From Escherichia phage AnnaHegner_Bas87: a stretch of 64,000 nucleotides of DNA. How positions within the stretch are numbered: the stretch's first letter is position 1; each line of letters begins with the position of its first letter. Under the pieces are notes generated by a model. The model worked only from the letters and a program-made list of their open reading frames with translations. It was not told the DNA's origin and searched no databases. The position numbers and the translations under genes are program-made. Below are positions 1,608 through 60,983 of the stretch, one piece after another. The stretch lies in the sequence record PQ850594.1; one strand, written 5' to 3'.

Positions 1608-3851
1608 ATGGCTAAGAAGAAATTTAGTGAAGATGTTTTGGATGAATTACGCGTTGACCTTCAACGTCGATTCAATTATGCTCAAGGCTATGTAGACTTA
1701 GCTGTAAAAGGCTATGCTCGTGAGGCTTGGGAATACTTCTATGGGAACCTTCCTGCTCCAGTTACTGCTGGTAGTTCTAGTTGGGTAGACCGTACAGTAT
1801 GGGAATCAGTGAATGGTACGCTCCAAGATATCATTAACGTGTTCTGTTCTGGTGACGAAGCGGTAACTTTCGTAGCCGATAACCAAGAAGATAGTGATGC
1901 TGCTGACGTAGCCACTAAACTTGTCAACCAAATTCTGTTACGTGATAATCCGGGATACAATATTATCTCTTCAGCGGCACAAGAGTGTCTGGTTACACGT
2001 AACTCTTTTATTAAATATTATTGGGATGAACAAACTTCTACCCAAACAGAAGAAGCAGAGGGTGTTCCTCCGGAAGCTTTGGCTGCATATGTCCAAGGTT
2101 TAGAAGCTGGTGGGCTTCAAGATTTAGAAATCTTTACCACTGACAACGAAGATGGTACAGTGGATGTTAAAGTAACTTACAAACAAACAGTAAAACGCGT
2201 TAAAGTAGAATATGTTCCTTCAGAACAGATTTTTGTTGACGAACATGCTACCTCTTTTGCAGATGCTCAGTATTTCTGTCATCGCACACGTAAATCTAAA
2301 GAAGATCTGGTTGCTATGGGCTTCCCTAAAGATGAAATTGAAGCTTTTAATGACTGGACTGATACAATGGACACTACTCAATCTACTGTTGCATGGTCAC
2401 GTACTGACTGGAGACAGGATACAGATGCTGATATTGGTGTTGACACTGAAGATATCGCAAGTATGGTATGGGTTTACGAGCATTACATTCGTACTGGTAC
2501 GCTCGATAAGAACAAAGAGTCAAAACTCTACCAAGTTATTCAAGCAGGCGAGCATATTCTCTCTTGTGAAGAAGTAACTAGCATTCCTTTTGTAACATTC
2601 TGCCCTTATCCTATTCCGGGTTCATTCTATGGACAGTCGGTTTATGATATTACTAAAGATATTCAGGATTTGCGTACCGCTTTGGTTCGTGGTTATATCG
2701 ATAACGTAAACAATGCTAACTATGGTCGATATAAGGCGCTTGTAGGCGCGTATGACCGTCGTTCTTTGCTAGACAACCGTCCGGGCGGTGTAGTAGAAAT
2801 GGAGCGTCAGGATGCGATTGATCTCTTCCCATACCATAATCTACCTCAAGGTATCGATGGCTTGCTGGGAATGTCTGATGAGTTGAAAGAAACTCGTACT
2901 GGTGTTACTAAACTCGGTATGGGTATTAACCCTGATGTGTTTAAGAATGATAACGCATATGCAACTGTTGGATTGATGATGAATGCTGCTCAGAACCGTC
3001 TCCGTATGGTCTGTCGTAACATTGCTCACAACGGTATGGTTGAATTGATGCGTGGTATTTATAATTTAGTCCGAGAAAATGGTGAGGTTCCTTTACAAGT
3101 ACAAACCCCTCGTGGTATGGTTCAGGTTCATCCTAAACAACTGCCTGCTCGTCACAATCTACAAGTTGTTGTAGCTATCTCTCCTAGCGAGAAATCAGAA
3201 CGTGCCCAGAAACTAATCAGCCTGAAGCAATTGATTGCTGCTGATGCTCAGTTAGCACCTCTGTTTACTCTGGAGCAAGATCGTTACATGACTGCACAGA
3301 TCTTCGAGTTGATGGGAATTAAAGATACTCACAAATACTTAATGCCTCTGGAACAATATCAACCGCCAGAACCTTCTCCGATGGAAATCCTCCAGCTTGA
3401 GATGACTAAAGCACAGGTTGAGAACGTACAGGCTTCTTCTCAGAAGATGATTGCTGATGCATTCGACCAGCGTGAACGCACTACGTTTGAACAGCAGAAA
3501 GCTGCGGACGAGTTCAGCTTACGTCAAGAAGAACTGCAATTTAAGCAAGAGAATGCTGCTGATCAGATGACTTTGGAGAATCGTAAAGAAGACAACAGTG
3601 CTACACTTGAACAGGCTAAGCACAAGTTGGCTCTGCTCCAGCAACAGGTCCGTCAGTATGAATCTGTACTTAAAGAATTGCAGATGACTCTTAATCATCA
3701 GGTCGATGTTGAGAAAGTTGCAAATCAGGCTAAAATTCAAGATAAGACTTTGGAACTCCAAAAGAAAGAAGCAAATGAAACTAAGAAAGAACAGCAAAGT
3801 TCAATCAAAGATTCACGGATTCCTAACCGTCGTCTTGGTAGTAGAAAATAA
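1608..3851 (+). CDS. portal protein (probable)
   Basis: 747-aa ORF directly after terminase with strong RBS (GAGGGAGAG); coiled-coil C-terminal region; position and size typical of portal. Confidence 0.6.
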   Translation: MAKKKFSEDVLDELRVDLQRRFNYAQGYVDLAVKGYAREAWEYFYGNLPAPVTAGSSSWVDRTVWESVNGTLQDIINVFCSGDEAVTFVADNQEDSDAADVATKLVNQILLRDNPGYNIISSAAQECLVTRNSFIKYYWDEQTSTQTEEAEGVPPEALAAYVQGLEAGGLQDLEIFTTDNEDGTVDVKVTYKQTVKRVKVEYVPSEQIFVDEHATSFADAQYFCHRTRKSKEDLVAMGFPKDEIEAFNDWTDTMDTTQSTVAWSRTDWRQDTDADIGVDTEDIASMVWVYEHYIRTGTLDKNKESKLYQVIQAGEHILSCEEVTSIPFVTFCPYPIPGSFYGQSVYDITKDIQDLRTALVRGYIDNVNNANYGRYKALVGAYDRRSLLDNRPGGVVEMERQDAIDLFPYHNLPQGIDGLLGMSDELKETRTGVTKLGMGINPDVFKNDNAYATVGLMMNAAQNRLRMVCRNIAHNGMVELMRGIYNLVRENGEVPLQVQTPRGMVQVHPKQLPARHNLQVVVAISPSEKSERAQKLISLKQLIAADAQLAPLFTLEQDRYMTAQIFELMGIKDTHKYLMPLEQYQPPEPSPMEILQLEMTKAQVENVQASSQKMIADAFDQRERTTFEQQKAADEFSLRQEELQFKQENAADQMTLENRKEDNSATLEQAKHKLALLQQQVRQYESVLKELQMTLNHQVDVEKVANQAKIQDKTLELQKKEANETKKEQQSSIKDSRIPNRRLGSRK

Positions 3852-54163: not shown

Positions 54164-56197
54164 TTAGTGTTTACCTTTACAGTAATCTGAATTACAGATC
54201 ACCCTGTTTTCTTTGTTCAGTGAGCAAGTTTCTGCATCACGCCACGGAATTTGTTTATAACAGACTGCACAAAACCCAATTGAAGTCCAGAGGGCTTTTG
54301 TAAACTCAGCTGTTCGTTGTCCATCGTAACTGACAACTGTTTTTCGGAGAGAGGTTGACTTTTCTGGAAATGTCTCCGCTTTCTCAGCGGGTACCTCCTT
54401 TGGGGCATTCTTTGGACCATAAACAGAGATGGCATAAGTATCACCACCACGTTTTTCCAAATACGAATTAGGAACATCTGCAAGTGTGATGTCCCCTGAA
54501 CGTTTTGCTGAGCTGACCATTACAATCATACGGCTAAGCATACGTTCATCAACACGAACAGCTACTTCAGGACGACGTGGGTTGGTTGTGTCTACTGCTT
54601 TAGTCCAAATATAACCTTCAGATAGAGTAACATTCTTTACTTTATCTTTGATTTCTTTGGAGCAGATATAACAAACGTCTTCACCACGAAGTTTACTCAT
54701 TTCGTTGTCAAACTCGAAATCAGTCTTGACTTCACCACAGATAGCACATACACCCAAAGGCACATCTTCTTCCTCTTCAGAGGTTTTAGATAACGCTTCG
54801 AAGCATTCTGGATGCCAGTATGCCTGATAAGCAAACACAGCCTTACGAGCATCTTTCCAGTCAATGTGCTTATCACAACCACCACAGTCACCATGAGAGT
54901 GAGATTCCCAGAACTTACGAGTGACTTCTACACCATTCTTAGTGATGAAGGAGTCCTCTGCATCAAAAGGGATATCATCATCAAAATCAGCAGTAGTGCT
55001 TTGAGGCTCCTTATCTGTAGCATCAACAAACAGCCCTGAAGTTAGTACGAGGCGAATCATACTGTCCACTTCGGAGATACAAGCGATTGTCCCGCGATAT
55101 ACTACCTTTGGGTTTTCAAGAGCCTTAAGATATTCATCTTTGGCTACGTTGTGAACATCCCCTTCGACATACTCTTGGGCTTTATCATCGTAGATGTAAC
55201 CAACCATCTTACCACGATCTGTGTTGTTATAAGCATGGAACTCGTGAGGAATAATATCCACACGACCATCACGACGATAAGGAAGACCACGATCGGCAGC
55301 CAGTTTGTTCTGGTCTTCAATCGCTTTACGACGACGAATGTCTCCGCTTGTCACGCCGGGCTTGTCGTCTTTGTTTCCGTAAATGTCGCTTGTGCTGCTG
55401 CTTGGTTTGTTTGTCTGTTGGTTCTGATAAAGAGAGGAGTTCGAGTAATAGCCGCCCCAGCGACTCGTTACCGTAAAAACCGGAAGCTTGTGCTCCACCT
55501 CTTGAACCAGAGTCATACGACTGTTAGACACATCAAAGATATACTCAGTTCCCACTTTACACTCGAAGTGGTCATTGATACGGTTCTTGTGGGATTTAGA
55601 ACGCTCTAAAATCCACATAAGCATAGCTTCTTCAGAAGCCCCAAACCAATCCAAACCACAGCGGGCTAGGTGGAAAGGACGCTCATCATTACGGATAATG
55701 TGAAGCGTGTTGTCTTTAGCATCATGCCAAATCAAAGTGAATGCACCATCCAGTTTTTGGATAGTCTCTGCTGCTCCAATGGTGTTAATTGAGTGGCAGA
55801 TGTTTTCACTATCAACTTCGAAACGCTTACTGTCAGGAAGGAGATCTTGATCTAACAGGGTTCCATTATGAACCAGAGTAATATCCCCGTGAGTAAATGG
55901 GTGAGCATTTCGAGCATTGACAGCCCCACGAGTGGCATGTCGGCTGTGACCAACAATCCACGAAGGAGGAACTACGTAGTTCGTAAGCCCTTTGGTAATA
56001 TTTGTATATTCTGTCTGGAGCATAAAAGCATAAGAAGGAAGAGCTTCTTTATAAGAGAAGACTTGCTTTTCACCTTTACGCTGACCAAACACACCAGTTG
56101 AGTGCTGTCCACGGAAAACACCAGCATACAGAAGTTGGTTGAAAATGTCCAAATCTGCTGAGGTCATGTTGCCGCCAGCTAATACGATACCACAAAT
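54164..56197 (-). CDS. class-II (Ntn) glutamine amidotransferase domain fused to Cys-rich zinc-ribbon region; probable AUU start directly before catalytic Cys
   Basis: in-frame ...TAG AAA ATT TGT GGT ATC GTA... gives (I)CGIVLAGGNMTSADL...FRGQHSTGVFG matching GAT-II N-termini; AGGTGG 8 nt upstream of ATT; no asparagine-synthetase PP-loop seen. Confidence 0.55.
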   Translation of the reverse strand: MCGIVLAGGNMTSADLDIFNQLLYAGVFRGQHSTGVFGQRKGEKQVFSYKEALPSYAFMLQTEYTNITKGLTNYVVPPSWIVGHSRHATRGAVNARNAHPFTHGDITLVHNGTLLDQDLLPDSKRFEVDSENICHSINTIGAAETIQKLDGAFTLIWHDAKDNTLHIIRNDERPFHLARCGLDWFGASEEAMLMWILERSKSHKNRINDHFECKVGTEYIFDVSNSRMTLVQEVEHKLPVFTVTSRWGGYYSNSSLYQNQQTNKPSSSTSDIYGNKDDKPGVTSGDIRRRKAIEDQNKLAADRGLPYRRDGRVDIIPHEFHAYNNTDRGKMVGYIYDDKAQEYVEGDVHNVAKDEYLKALENPKVVYRGTIACISEVDSMIRLVLTSGLFVDATDKEPQSTTADFDDDIPFDAEDSFITKNGVEVTRKFWESHSHGDCGGCDKHIDWKDARKAVFAYQAYWHPECFEALSKTSEEEEDVPLGVCAICGEVKTDFEFDNEMSKLRGEDVCYICSKEIKDKVKNVTLSEGYIWTKAVDTTNPRRPEVAVRVDERMLSRMIVMVSSAKRSGDITLADVPNSYLEKRGGDTYAISVYGPKNAPKEVPAEKAETFPEKSTSLRKTVVSYDGQRTAEFTKALWTSIGFCAVCYKQIPWRDAETCSLNKENRVICNSDYCKGKH

Positions 56198-56274
56198 TTT
56201 CTAATCCACCTGAAGGGTAAACCCTTTCATCTAATTAACCTTTAAATGCGCCCTGTATAAGAGCGCCCGTTGTG

Positions 56275-57375
56275 TTACAGTAGTCGTTCTAATTGCATTT
56301 CCAGATGGTCTGGAATATAACCAGTGACGTTATCATCACTGCTACCTGATTCACGCATCAATGCAAACATGTGACGAATTTCACGAACCGTTGCGATTCG
56401 AGTGCTTTCAATCTGAGGGGTGTAGTAGGTCATGATCTCTTCGTAGACACTGTTGGCATTACCGCGCACATATCCCAAGAAACCATAGAAGTCATTCATA
56501 TCACGTAAGTTGATAAGGACTTCACCATCAGGGCCAGTCTGTTGCACACGAACACGACCAACCAAAGTCACAGATTGCTCACGACAGAAGAGAATATCAC
56601 GAGCAAGACGATACCCTTCAGTGAGATCACTGTCTCTTGGAGTATAGTCTAGGGGTAGATGTTGAATCATAGGAGCGAAGCGCAGCTCATTCAACTTCTC
56701 AACATAAGCTTCATTGTCTAAATCTGCATATTCAACAGCCAGTTTCTTGAGAACCAAGAAGCGGTTGACCAGATTCAGAAGTTGGCTCTTTTTCCACTTC
56801 GGCTCTGAGATACGGAACTCAACAGAACCAAATTGAGATAGAGGCAAAAGATTAAGGGAGGTATATTTATCCCAGCTATTAACAAGAGAGTGGAAGAAAG
56901 CTTCCCCGTCTCGGTTGAACGCTGACGAAGCATTCATAACTTGTGCTTGAACGACAGCAAAAGCTGGACAGAAGTTGCTACGATAGCGATGGTATCCAGA
57001 ACATTTGAACATCATCTTTTCATAGAACGTCCATCCAAGAATAACTTTCTTAAGGATGTTACTATCAGCGTCACGCATATCCATATGAACATGAGTGGAG
57101 CAGCGCCAAGTTCCCTCGGCTCCAGAATCCTGTACTGCTTCACTCAGATTGTTAATAGCACGAAGTAATTCTTCACCGTTGTAAGGTCGTGCACATACTA
57201 ATTCACAACCATCACGAAGAGAGCCATCTTCAGTACAAACCCACATATCAGCGTCAATGTCAGTTGTACCTTCGACTTCTAACTCAATACCAACACCACA
57301 CTGAAAAGCAATACTTGGATGCGGTTCAGATAAGCGAGGGTTACGGTATCCAAAAACTTGTGCTACGGTTGTCAT
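56275..57375 (-). CDS. GS-like carboxylate-amine ligase (amidoligase) candidate
   Basis: 366 aa with ...WRCSTHVHMDMRD... (HVH motif); adjacent to second such gene. Confidence 0.45.
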   Translation of the reverse strand: MTTVAQVFGYRNPRLSEPHPSIAFQCGVGIELEVEGTTDIDADMWVCTEDGSLRDGCELVCARPYNGEELLRAINNLSEAVQDSGAEGTWRCSTHVHMDMRDADSNILKKVILGWTFYEKMMFKCSGYHRYRSNFCPAFAVVQAQVMNASSAFNRDGEAFFHSLVNSWDKYTSLNLLPLSQFGSVEFRISEPKWKKSQLLNLVNRFLVLKKLAVEYADLDNEAYVEKLNELRFAPMIQHLPLDYTPRDSDLTEGYRLARDILFCREQSVTLVGRVRVQQTGPDGEVLINLRDMNDFYGFLGYVRGNANSVYEEIMTYYTPQIESTRIATVREIRHMFALMRESGSSDDNVTGYIPDHLEMQLERLL

Positions 57376-59765: not shown

Positions 59766-60983
59766 CTATTTATTAAAGAATAATTTTTCCATAATGGTTT
59801 CCCACTCTTCTGAGGGGAGGGTTGAGAACCCGTTTCCGTGAAGCCTGTTTGTCATGCAACTAATAATATTGTACATGTTGTAGCTTCGGGTGGATTCTGT
59901 TCCATTGTTCCAGTTATAACCGAAAACAATTTTATCGAAGGAGGTTTTATCCGTAGTTACTTCTCGGATGAACTCAACCAAGAGCGATTTCTCTGTGATG
60001 ACCGCACGTTCACCATCTGGCAGATTACAATACTGAGGAAGAAGGATTGGTAAGAACATCGAATTGTTCACTCGACAATCGCGCACACCTTCACTGCGAT
60101 AGATTAGGCTTGAGAAGTCTTCATCACGCAGGTGTCCTTCACCTTCAGTGTATTCACACTGTCGCCATTTGGTCTGGCGAGGTTTAACCATTGTACTACC
60201 AACGCCTACTGTATACAGAGACGCTTGGAAGATACATGAATCGTAATCATTCCCTGTTAAAGCAACTTGCTCATTGCCGAACACATCCACTGAAGAGTTG
60301 ATCAGTCGGCTGAATGCAAGAGAGGCTAAAGGGGACCAACCTTTCTTATACATCTTGTTCAACATTTCATACACAGCAGATTTTTCATCATCTGTATAGA
60401 ATGTACGATTCAGCATCAGATAGAACAGAGCGCGATCAGCAGGACAACCATCAGTACAAACACCCATGAATCCTACTTCATGCCATACCAGACATGAGTC
60501 AGAATCCTTATCCATGAATGCTTCAAAGGCTTCCATTACAGCCCTGTCAGTAACATCAGGACGGTTGTTTTCTTCTGCCCATGTTTCTACATGAGAAGGA
60601 GGACGAGGGTCTCCATTCTCCACCCCTTCGCGGAAATATTGAGTGGTAATAGGCTTTTTATCACCATAACGTTTTACACCATAAGCGGGAAGGTGTGTAC
60701 CAGAGTTCCAGATGTACTTAATTTCGGACATAGGCATCATGTTTTCAAGAACGTTCTCTTCAGCAGTGCCTTGACGAACCATCATATTTTCACTCCACAC
60801 CTTAATGCGGATATTCCAGCCGTAGTTGCTGTCATACGTGTTATAATAATCAGGATCACCATCTTCATCTTCATCATAATCACCACCCTGATAGTAACCT
60901 GCTTTCAGGAAACCATAACAAGGAGGCCAGATGGTTACAACATCATCTGATTCTTTCCAGCTTTGAAGTGTTACAGGGAACAT
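59766..60983 (-). CDS. hypothetical protein (cassette member)
   Basis: 405-aa ORF, first long gene of cassette. Confidence 0.45.
   Translation of the reverse strand: MFPVTLQSWKESDDVVTIWPPCYGFLKAGYYQGGDYDEDEDGDPDYYNTYDSNYGWNIRIKVWSENMMVRQGTAEENVLENMMPMSEIKYIWNSGTHLPAYGVKRYGDKKPITTQYFREGVENGDPRPPSHVETWAEENNRPDVTDRAVMEAFEAFMDKDSDSCLVWHEVGFMGVCTDGCPADRALFYLMLNRTFYTDDEKSAVYEMLNKMYKKGWSPLASLAFSRLINSSVDVFGNEQVALTGNDYDSCIFQASLYTVGVGSTMVKPRQTKWRQCEYTEGEGHLRDEDFSSLIYRSEGVRDCRVNNSMFLPILLPQYCNLPDGERAVITEKSLLVEFIREVTTDKTSFDKIVFGYNWNNGTESTRSYNMYNIISCMTNRLHGNGFSTLPSEEWETIMEKLFFNK

Follow-up and report, generated by a model that had tools for sequence, protein, structure and literature searches.

Among described genes, the closest counterparts of the locus analysed here are infC, which encodes initiation factor 3 (IF3), and pcnB of Escherichia coli, both of which start at the rare codon AUU with a Shine-Dalgarno (SD) sequence of their own. 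At the thrS-infC junction, AUU lies three nucleotides (nt) after the stop codon (UAA GGU AUU), and reinitiation and de novo initiation contribute approximately equal shares (PMC3592434). In reporters, the yield from AUU is 6 to 8 times lower than that from AUG or GUG, and an AUU at the infC junction yields twice as much as a monocistronic one (PMC3592434). We analysed a stretch of 64,000 nt from Escherichia phage AnnaHegner_Bas87 (PQ850594.1), referred to below as the window. On its minus strand it carries a gene for a class-II (N-terminal nucleophile, Ntn) glutamine amidotransferase (GAT) that appears to start at AUU, here in the context UAG AAA AUU and likewise 3 nt after a stop codon. In contrast to thrS, the open reading frame (ORF) that ends at this stop codon is only nine codons long, and it is not conserved in homologous junctions. 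Autoregulation of the type exerted by IF3 is neither known nor implied for the phage GAT, and its AUU is apparently borne by a cassette rather than being a feedback sensor.

Internal initiation at AUU in gene 26 of phage T4, a secondary start that yields a shorter product, was reportedly described by Nivinskas et al. in 1992. The GAT would similarly be a phage protein made from AUU in an E. coli host, but the AUU in the window would be the sole productive start.

Free-standing homing endonucleases (HEs) that split host genes include mobA of T4, which is found with gene 60/39 and a 50-nt bypass element, and mobE of Aeh1, in nrdA (PMC2988022). The cassette considered here is like these in that a free-standing HE of the HNH type sits in a critical, conserved part of a phage gene, and in that extra sequence travelling with it keeps the host gene expressed. 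It differs in that the gene is split right at its start codon, which leaves no detached protein fragment and calls for no bypass; instead, the cassette gives a new SD and a non-AUG start. In the window phage, moreover, the endonuclease itself is gone. In the T4 case, mobA and the bypass element are said to form one mobile cassette, a finding attributed to Bonocora et al. in 2011.

As an enzyme, the phage protein resembles GlmS, PurF and AsnB, with which it shares a GATase_6/7 match and a Cys1 nucleophile that must be the free N-terminal residue. Its family, however, is specific to phages, has a long Cys-rich extension at the C-terminus, and lacks an isomerase or phosphoribosyltransferase (PRTase) domain. 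PurF of Bacillus subtilis is made with a propeptide of 11 residues, whereas there is no evidence for a propeptide in the phage GAT, and approximately 19% of the sampled members start at AUU, AUC or UUG.

Proposed origin of the start region

The window phage is one of the phiEco32-like podophages (subfamily Gordonclarkvirinae) and is 99.9% identical to Escherichia phage Bas86. We propose that AUU is used as the start of the GAT and that the leader of approximately 52 nt ending in this codon (56195 to 56246, minus strand) is a relic of the 3' end of an HNH_3 HE cassette, a reading that the comparisons described below make probable.

The GAT would be translated from AUU at 56197-56195 by means of the SD AGGUGG 8 nt upstream and the initiator fMet-tRNA, and removal of the formyl group and then of Met would expose Cys1 as the N-terminal nucleophile. 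The stretch 56246-56195, which runs from TTTAAAGG through a hairpin and the SD to the AUU, matches the 3' end of the cassette of a free-standing HNH_3 HE. In related phages, this cassette sits directly 5' of the GAT coding sequence and carries a replacement translation-initiation region that ends in ATT, ATC or TTG. In the phiEco32-like phages, the HE ORF would have been deleted, with the tail alone surviving, and the nine-codon mini-ORF would be a by-product of the relic rather than a conserved feature. Because the stop codon of the mini-ORF lies 3 nt before AUU, as at thrS-infC, terminating ribosomes may add some reinitiation. The activity and target of the endonuclease, and the order of evolutionary events, are what we infer from sequence comparison.

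Probable initiation at AUU

The GAT gene spans 54164 to 56197 (677 codons plus stop) on the minus strand, as delimited by the ORF list and matches to the Pfam profiles GATase_6, GATase_7 and GATase_4; the annotations of Bas86, phiEco32 and SU10 give it the same limits. Read as the reverse complement of 56050-56330, the region upstream begins with CTG TAA, the latter being the stop codon of an amidoligase gene, and continues with CACAAC GGGCGCTCTTATACAGGGCGC A TTTAAAGGTTAATTAG. There follows ATG AAA GGG TTT ACC CTT CAG GTG GAT TAG AAA ATT TGT GGT ATC GTA TTA GCT GGC GGC AAC ATG ACC. Its first ten codons, from ATG (56230-56228) to TAG (56203-56201), are the in-frame mini-ORF (56201 to 56230; MKGFTLQVD), which is present in phiEco32-like phages and in Aeromonas phage BUCT695 and is preceded at 8 nt by an SD-like AAAGG (56239 to 56243). 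The AAA after TAG (56200-56198) leads to ATT (56195 to 56197), the proposed initiation codon, and TGT (56192 to 56194), the codon of the catalytic nucleophile Cys1. The SD of ATT, AGGTGG, lies 8 nt upstream (56206 to 56211). The elements that an earlier reading of the window from its letters alone (the sequence-only reading) had described, including the listed ORF that opens at ATG 56167, are all present.

We compared the codon before the catalytic Cys in the 80 best IMG/VR relatives of the GAT. It is ATG in 65 of them, ATT in 11, ATC in 3 and TTG in 1. Distant homologues start with MCG(I/L)V, and their DNA has an ordinary SD followed by ATG TGT exactly where the window has ATT TGT. In the window, an in-frame AUU thus stands where the protein must begin, with an SD at a working distance and no start codon between it and the in-frame TAG two codons upstream. 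Nine ATT/ATC loci lie outside the phiEco32 group; eight of them have an in-frame stop codon upstream and no canonical start between, and at each of the nine an SD of the GGAG or AGGA type precedes the start codon by 6 to 10 nt. If initiation did not occur at AUU or AUC, the enzymes of these loci would all lack Cys1. The non-ATG starts occupy at least seven separate placements in a rough neighbour-joining tree.

The window protein has both features by which a class-II amidotransferase can be recognized in sequence, a profile-detectable GATase domain (GATase_6, 2.7e-14, 53.7 bits with a cut-off of 27; GATase_7, 25.1 bits with a cut-off of 25) and a Cys at position 1. The family profile places this Cys at residue 1 of GlmS (1xff) and at residue 1 of PurF (1ecb), both mature structures, so that translation from Met 56167 would yield a protein without the nucleophile. 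All 19 aligned members have the Cys, and the active-site positions of the Ntn fold are all intact. In SU10-infected cells the GAT protein has been detected by proteomics (nine peptides; no N-terminus mapped).

Taken with the ATG at the same position in relatives and the lack of conservation of ATG 56167 (see below), these comparisons strongly support initiation of the GAT at AUU 56197-56195, directly before Cys1, which was one of the options offered by the sequence-only reading. That AUU is actually used in translation we infer from the sequences. The AUU start as such is not new, because the original phiEco32 record (phi32_83), the SU10 RefSeq record and the Bas86 record already annotate the coding sequence from ATT. 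We found no experimental proof or discussion of the AUU start of the GAT gene in the literature.

The Cys-rich C-terminal two thirds of the protein (54164-55450, minus strand) contain several CxxC pairs and give a weak LIM match (E 0.008). Homologues of the GAT likewise end in CxxC...CxxC, and no isomerase or synthetase domain is attached to the window protein. A 39-codon ORF in another frame (56076-56195, minus strand) starts at TTG 56195-56193 inside the ATT TGT junction and shares the SD of AUU; it is probably spurious.

The leader and homing endonuclease cassettes

The reference endonuclease is a protein of 139 amino acids in which Pfam recognizes an HNH_3 domain (7.7e-9) and, weakly, HTH_23 near the C-terminus (0.006). 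It is encoded directly upstream of the GAT in oyster phage T2S1, where the GAT starts at TTG. Its homologues include an ORF on L231 (a phage contig in an assembly of Herbiconiux) and fragments in BUCT695. In phage T4S1, an intact HE with its stop codon in CTTTAA is followed by a hairpin (GGGGU-UGUG-ACCCC) and then by AGGAGGATTAGAAA ATT TGT. The stretch after the hairpin is identical to that of the window at 21 of 22 nt, whereas the two GATs are only approximately 36% identical. At L231 the sequence is AAAAGGTAAG CTG GAA AGG GAT TTA TCC CTT GGA GAG GAT TAG TAA ATT TGC, and an ORF of at least 73 codons, its 5' end cut by the contig, crosses the hairpin to the tandem stop codons directly before ATT. 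BUCT695 (L016) has an unannotated, decayed HNH endonuclease gene between an amidoligase-like gene and the GAT (3306-3500); its N-terminal part, MDKVLKKITHQGDCWLWTGCINSDGYP, and its HTH tail are in different frames, within the 200 nt before the element.

The same junction, consisting of hairpin, SD, GATTAG(A/T)AA and ATT, therefore stands behind an HE in T4S1 and L231 and without one in the window. There, the leader is made up of TTTAAAGGTTAA, the hairpin, the SD, ATTAGAAA and ATT; its TTTAAAGGTTAA corresponds to TTAAAAGGTAAG of L231, which would be the last HE codons and the stop region. At the position of the SD AGGTGG, T4S1 has AGGAGG, BUCT695 AGGCGG and L231 GAGAGG. The hairpin (56213 to 56226) pairs AAGGG with CCCUU across a UUUA loop and can be extended to UGAA(A)GGG/CCCUUCA.

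A search of the six-frame ORFs of the window with the HE profile found no HE homologue, so the phiEco32-like phages would keep the tail only. None of 96 phiEco32-like records shows an HE at the GAT site; all carry the relic, and no presence/absence polymorphism of the HE is seen among them. Having no HE ORF, the window is best described as a relic of such a cassette and not as a member of the class.

The proposed cassette origin of the leader and the association of the HE with non-AUG starts are new; we found no literature that links these endonucleases to the GAT start codon. Of two HE relics suspected by eye, that at L077 scored E 0.42 and that at L048 gave no hit, and neither was confirmed. 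Upstream of the T4S1 HE there is an ATG TGT G that might have been a GAT start left behind; as it has no SD, this reading was dropped as unsupported.

The motif TTTAAATGTAA recurs upstream of the GAT in 7-11-, Privateer- and BUCT695-type phages and resembles the promoter element tAATGTAtA of phiEco32 gp36. It lies approximately 20-30 nt before the GAT ATG at L024, L026, L028 and L029 and at 3500-3512 of L016; the window has TTTAAAGGTTAA instead.

Association of the endonuclease with non-ATG starts

With the intact HNH_3 endonuclease as jackhmmer query, we surveyed the six-frame ORFs of 85 GAT loci over 1.5 kb of upstream sequence. Matches occurred only at non-ATG loci: L074 and L231 (ATT), L081 and L098 (ATC), T2S1 (TTG) and, as fragments, BUCT695 (ATT). 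No HE was found within this distance upstream of any of 67 ATG-start GAT loci. The HE ORF ends 6 to 37 nt before the GAT at L074, L081, L098, L231 and L236, and the BUCT695 fragments lie 48 and 160 nt upstream. In the unbiased sample of 80 loci, all three HE-positive loci are among the 15 with a non-ATG start (hypergeometric P = 455/82160 = 0.0055, a rough value). A separate search that started from the HE added five cultured phages in which it adjoins the GAT; cultured phages have approximately 310 GAT loci in all. The GAT starts at ATT in 275E43-1, T4S1 and VPp1, at TTG in WD615, and at ATG (ATG TGT) in Pseudomonas phage UFV-P2 (L238), where an HNH_3 endonuclease lies directly upstream (168-590). 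Altogether, nine of ten HE-bearing loci have a non-ATG start (ATT, ATC or TTG).

The Vibrio phages BA6, VPp1 and WD615, which are approximately 98% identical on both sides of the site, allow a comparison with and without the cassette. BA6 has no HE and reads AAAAGGTATTAAATT ATG TGT GGA, the putative BA6-type target being ATTATGTGTGGAAT. VPp1 reads AAAAGGTATTAAATT ATG GTA TAG TTT ATG, the last codon being that of the HE, and, after the TAA and a hairpin, CTAAGGTGAACCGTT ATT TGT GGA. WD615, which has the HE, carries TTG TGT where BA6 has ATG TGT. The comparison of BA6 with VPp1 places the insertion within five nt of the ATG/TGT junction; both VPp1 junctions carry a copy of TTAT(G/T), which blurs the precise boundary, and the insert need not lie strictly between the two codons. 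Judged from these sequences, the cassette supplies the host gene with a new SD and a new non-AUG start.

In VPp1 (L241, approximately 1255-1275), the former SD and ATG of the GAT open a two-codon ORF, ATG GTA TAG, which is followed by the TTT ATG of the HE. The spacing of 3 nt between stop and start is the same as in the window, and the HE may owe its expression to reinitiation from the initiation region that it captured from the host gene.

The cassettes could end in a non-AUG codon either because an ancestral ATT hitch-hiked by co-conversion or because rebuilding the HE target was selected against. The second possibility is part of a broader scenario that we put forward tentatively and regard as possible but rather doubtful. 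In this scenario, a family of HNH HEs invades the start-codon/Cys1 junction of phage class-II GATs, which would be the most conserved DNA in the GAT gene, and a substitute ribosome-binding site keeps the host gene alive. A non-AUG start would be selected because AUG would rebuild the target of the HE, and would thus provide self-immunity. The phiEco32-like phages would then have lost the HE and domesticated its 52-nt tail as a leader that is constrained base for base and holds an upstream ORF, a hairpin and AUU.

Conservation and structure of the leader

A 61-nt core of the element is at least 98% identical in 96 records of Escherichia and Shigella phages. Outside these records, the element is found in BUCT695 at 90% identity. 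Among ten phiEco32-like genomes, a 55-nt block (56190 to 56244) is invariant, although the surrounding 660 nt are 69-98% identical, and the edges of the block are sharp. In view of the conserved core and the invariant run, the arrangement of the leader is not a product of chance. In the GAT codons of the same ten genomes, 80% of third positions vary, and 16-25% of first and second positions. The block is therefore conserved more strongly than the catalytic domain at non-synonymous positions. Not every base of the block is required for an SD, a start codon and a five-pair hairpin, and an extra constraint on it is thus likely; candidates are a protein-binding site and a weak AUU initiation region that is sensitive to change.

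Pairing in the hairpin is kept across four variants, including L231 and T4S1, with an A-U pair replaced by G-C in T4S1; an additional pair next to the loop is A-U in L231 and U-A in T4S1. When the leader and eleven HE-GAT junctions were folded, hairpins were present, but their z-scores run from -2.2 to +1.1 (-0.7 for the leader hairpin, an unexceptional energy), so that thermodynamics alone gives no support for a structure. An Rfam scan of 55900-56500 with E up to 10 returned only sub-threshold noise. Scans for sigma-70 promoters and terminators, and comparison with the gp36 promoter consensus tAATGTAtA, gave no match in the leader.

The element is unique, as no second copy occurs elsewhere in the window, and a collection scan with the exact 54-mer found phiEco32-like phages only. 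A scan of genome contigs found the element at six loci, including the decisive L231. Gapped-pattern scans of metagenomes and viral contigs returned only identical copies of the phiEco32 type. As probes for variants, the 14-mer TAGAAAATTTGTGG was too unspecific, and an 18-mer from the hairpin matched unrelated DNA; both were discarded. The N-domain of the BUCT695 GAT is 56% identical to that of the window protein, compared with 72% for the ATG-start locus L012 and 62-65% for L024, L025 and L028. Because BUCT695 has the element while these ATG-type loci are closer in their GAT, the distribution of the element is, on these identities, phylogenetically discordant.

Alternative explanations

AUU might be used mainly by termination-reinitiation: ribosomes would translate the mini-ORF from its own SD (AAAGG) and ATG 56230, stop at UAG and restart 3 nt on, and the mini-ORF would be essential and under selection. 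The spacing from stop codon to AUU is identical to that at thrS-infC, where coupling doubles the yield of AUU, and VPp1 shows the same geometry before its HE; the ATG and SD of the mini-ORF also lie inside the invariant block. However, although an upstream ORF does end 3 nt before ATT in the window, it is not kept wherever the junction is kept. BUCT695 lacks the SD of the mini-ORF (AAATGT, that is, AAATG in place of AAAGG) and differs in the peptide by F4L and V8A, T4S1 lacks the ATG, and L231 has CTG in its place. At eight other ATT/ATC loci, no in-frame ORF precedes the start, and AUU has an SD of its own. Since the homologous junctions of T4S1 and L231 are without the ATG, reinitiation cannot be the conserved mechanism, and as the main route in the window it is unlikely. 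What stands of the reinitiation option in the sequence-only reading is a possible local addition: a contribution in phiEco32-like phages is plausible because of the thrS-infC geometry, while the mini-ORF would in principle be dispensable.

Translation from ATG 56230 through the UAG, with autocatalytic removal of a 12-residue propeptide to expose Cys1 as in B. subtilis PurF, is a further option of the sequence-only reading but hardly conceivable. The mini-ORF is in frame, the propeptide would be similar in length to that of PurF, and at L053 an ATG in frame precedes the ATC start by 11 codons and the Cys by 12. The sequence-only reading had also taken TAG to be rare, on the grounds that no ORF in the window could be shown to end in it. 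In fact, eight ORFs of at least 80 codons do so, among them one of 405 codons (59766-60983, minus strand) that ends in FFNK TAG, and a tRNA scan aimed at a possible suppressor found no tRNA gene at all in the window. TAG is thus a genuine stop codon in this phage. L231 has tandem TAG TAA and T4S1 two in-frame TAGs with no ATG, which rules out read-through with a propeptide as a conserved mechanism; the peptide is not conserved either (KGFTL in the window, ERDLSL in L231), and Cys directly follows Met in 65 of the 80 relatives. A bypass of the T4 gene 60 type, with take-off at the AAA of codon 2 and landing on the AAA after UAG, or a slide of the initiator tRNA from AUG to AUU, strains belief to the same degree. 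Matched AAA codons do flank a 24-nt gap that ends in UAG, the hairpin begins at the take-off codon, and the landing codon is preceded at 5 nt by an SD-like sequence. The A-site codon after take-off is, however, GGG, a sense codon, and not a stop. There is no nascent-peptide signal, only two residues have been made at that point, the T4S1 and L231 junctions lack the ATG or the AAA pair, and the product would still need its MKI extension to be processed.

The protein could also start at Met 56167, lack Cys1 and be non-catalytic or repurposed, so that the CGIVLAGGN codons would be a decaying remnant. This internal ATG (Met11; 56165 to 56167) is the choice of gene callers and of several GenBank records. 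In EP335, phiEco32 and rybdy3, however, CTC or CTG stands in its place, the nearest in-frame start after it is 45 to 113 codons further on, and the CGIVLAG codons are kept with synonymous changes only. With the active-site positions also intact, the inactive protein considered by the sequence-only reading is very improbable.

Finally, the leader might be a regulatory element, for example a translational operator or a site bound by a protein, which the GAT operon has long inherited vertically and to which the HE is adjacent by coincidence or secondarily. The extreme invariance and sharp edges of the block, the compensatory changes that keep the hairpin, and the absence of an HE from every phiEco32-like genome would all fit. 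Against this stand the discordant distribution, in which BUCT695 and T4S1 have the element and closer ATG-type relatives do not, its position directly behind HE ORFs or remnants in three lineages, and the SD and non-ATG start that the cassette itself brings in VPp1 as compared with BA6. We consider a purely vertical origin improbable, although less so than the inactive protein.

Several observations weigh against the cassette origin of the leader and the use of its AUU. With no HE in the window or in the 96 records, the status as a relic rests on approximately 50 nt of similarity, and a decaying relic should not stay invariant over 55 nt, which leaves an additional function unaccounted for. 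UFV-P2 has the HE yet keeps ATG, as the sole exception. The non-ATG loci L040, L053, L060, L080 and L091 have no detectable HE, and the apparent HE tails at L077 and L048 lack statistical support. The P value of 0.0055 and the share from the HE-first search (5/6) are rough, because phylogeny links the loci, which are therefore not independent, and the element itself led to some of them. The aligned spacing from the SD core to AUU is rather long.

Implications

If the GAT does start at a cassette-borne AUU, annotations need correction, since many GenBank records truncate the GAT by 10 to 113 codons, and public annotations as a whole by 4 to 113, and the catalytic Cys is lost. Such truncation, which reflects the exclusion of ATT and ATC starts from gene calling, affects L004, L005, L237, L239 and L241; the coding sequences equivalent to that of the window are annotated from the downstream ATG in SU7, ECBP2 and 4E8, and EP335 and rybdy3 are annotated 58 and 113 codons too late. 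The family would be a natural cluster of genes that start at AUU, AUC or UUG (15 of the 80 relatives), compared with the handful known in E. coli. Near-isogenic ATG controls (BA6 against VPp1 and WD615) would provide a system for non-canonical initiation and for discrimination by IF3 during infection. For free-standing HEs, cutting right behind the start codon and bringing a new initiation region would be a third way into an essential coding sequence, one that needs no intron, intein or ribosomal bypass. The complete invariance of the relic in phiEco32-like phages would, furthermore, point to a regulatory function.

Other features of the locus

The gene upstream of the leader encodes an amidoligase (Amidoligase_2, Pfam; 56275 to 57375, minus strand). 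Just past its stop codon lies a second hairpin, GCGCUCU-UAUAC-AGGGCGC (56248 to 56266, minus strand), for which EP335 and phiEco32 have the version GUGCCUC(U)...(A)GGGGCAC with compensatory changes. As no U-run follows it, this hairpin is not a classical terminator. By Pfam, the GAT gene is located in a cluster of amidoligase, COOH-NH2 ligase and ATP-grasp genes.

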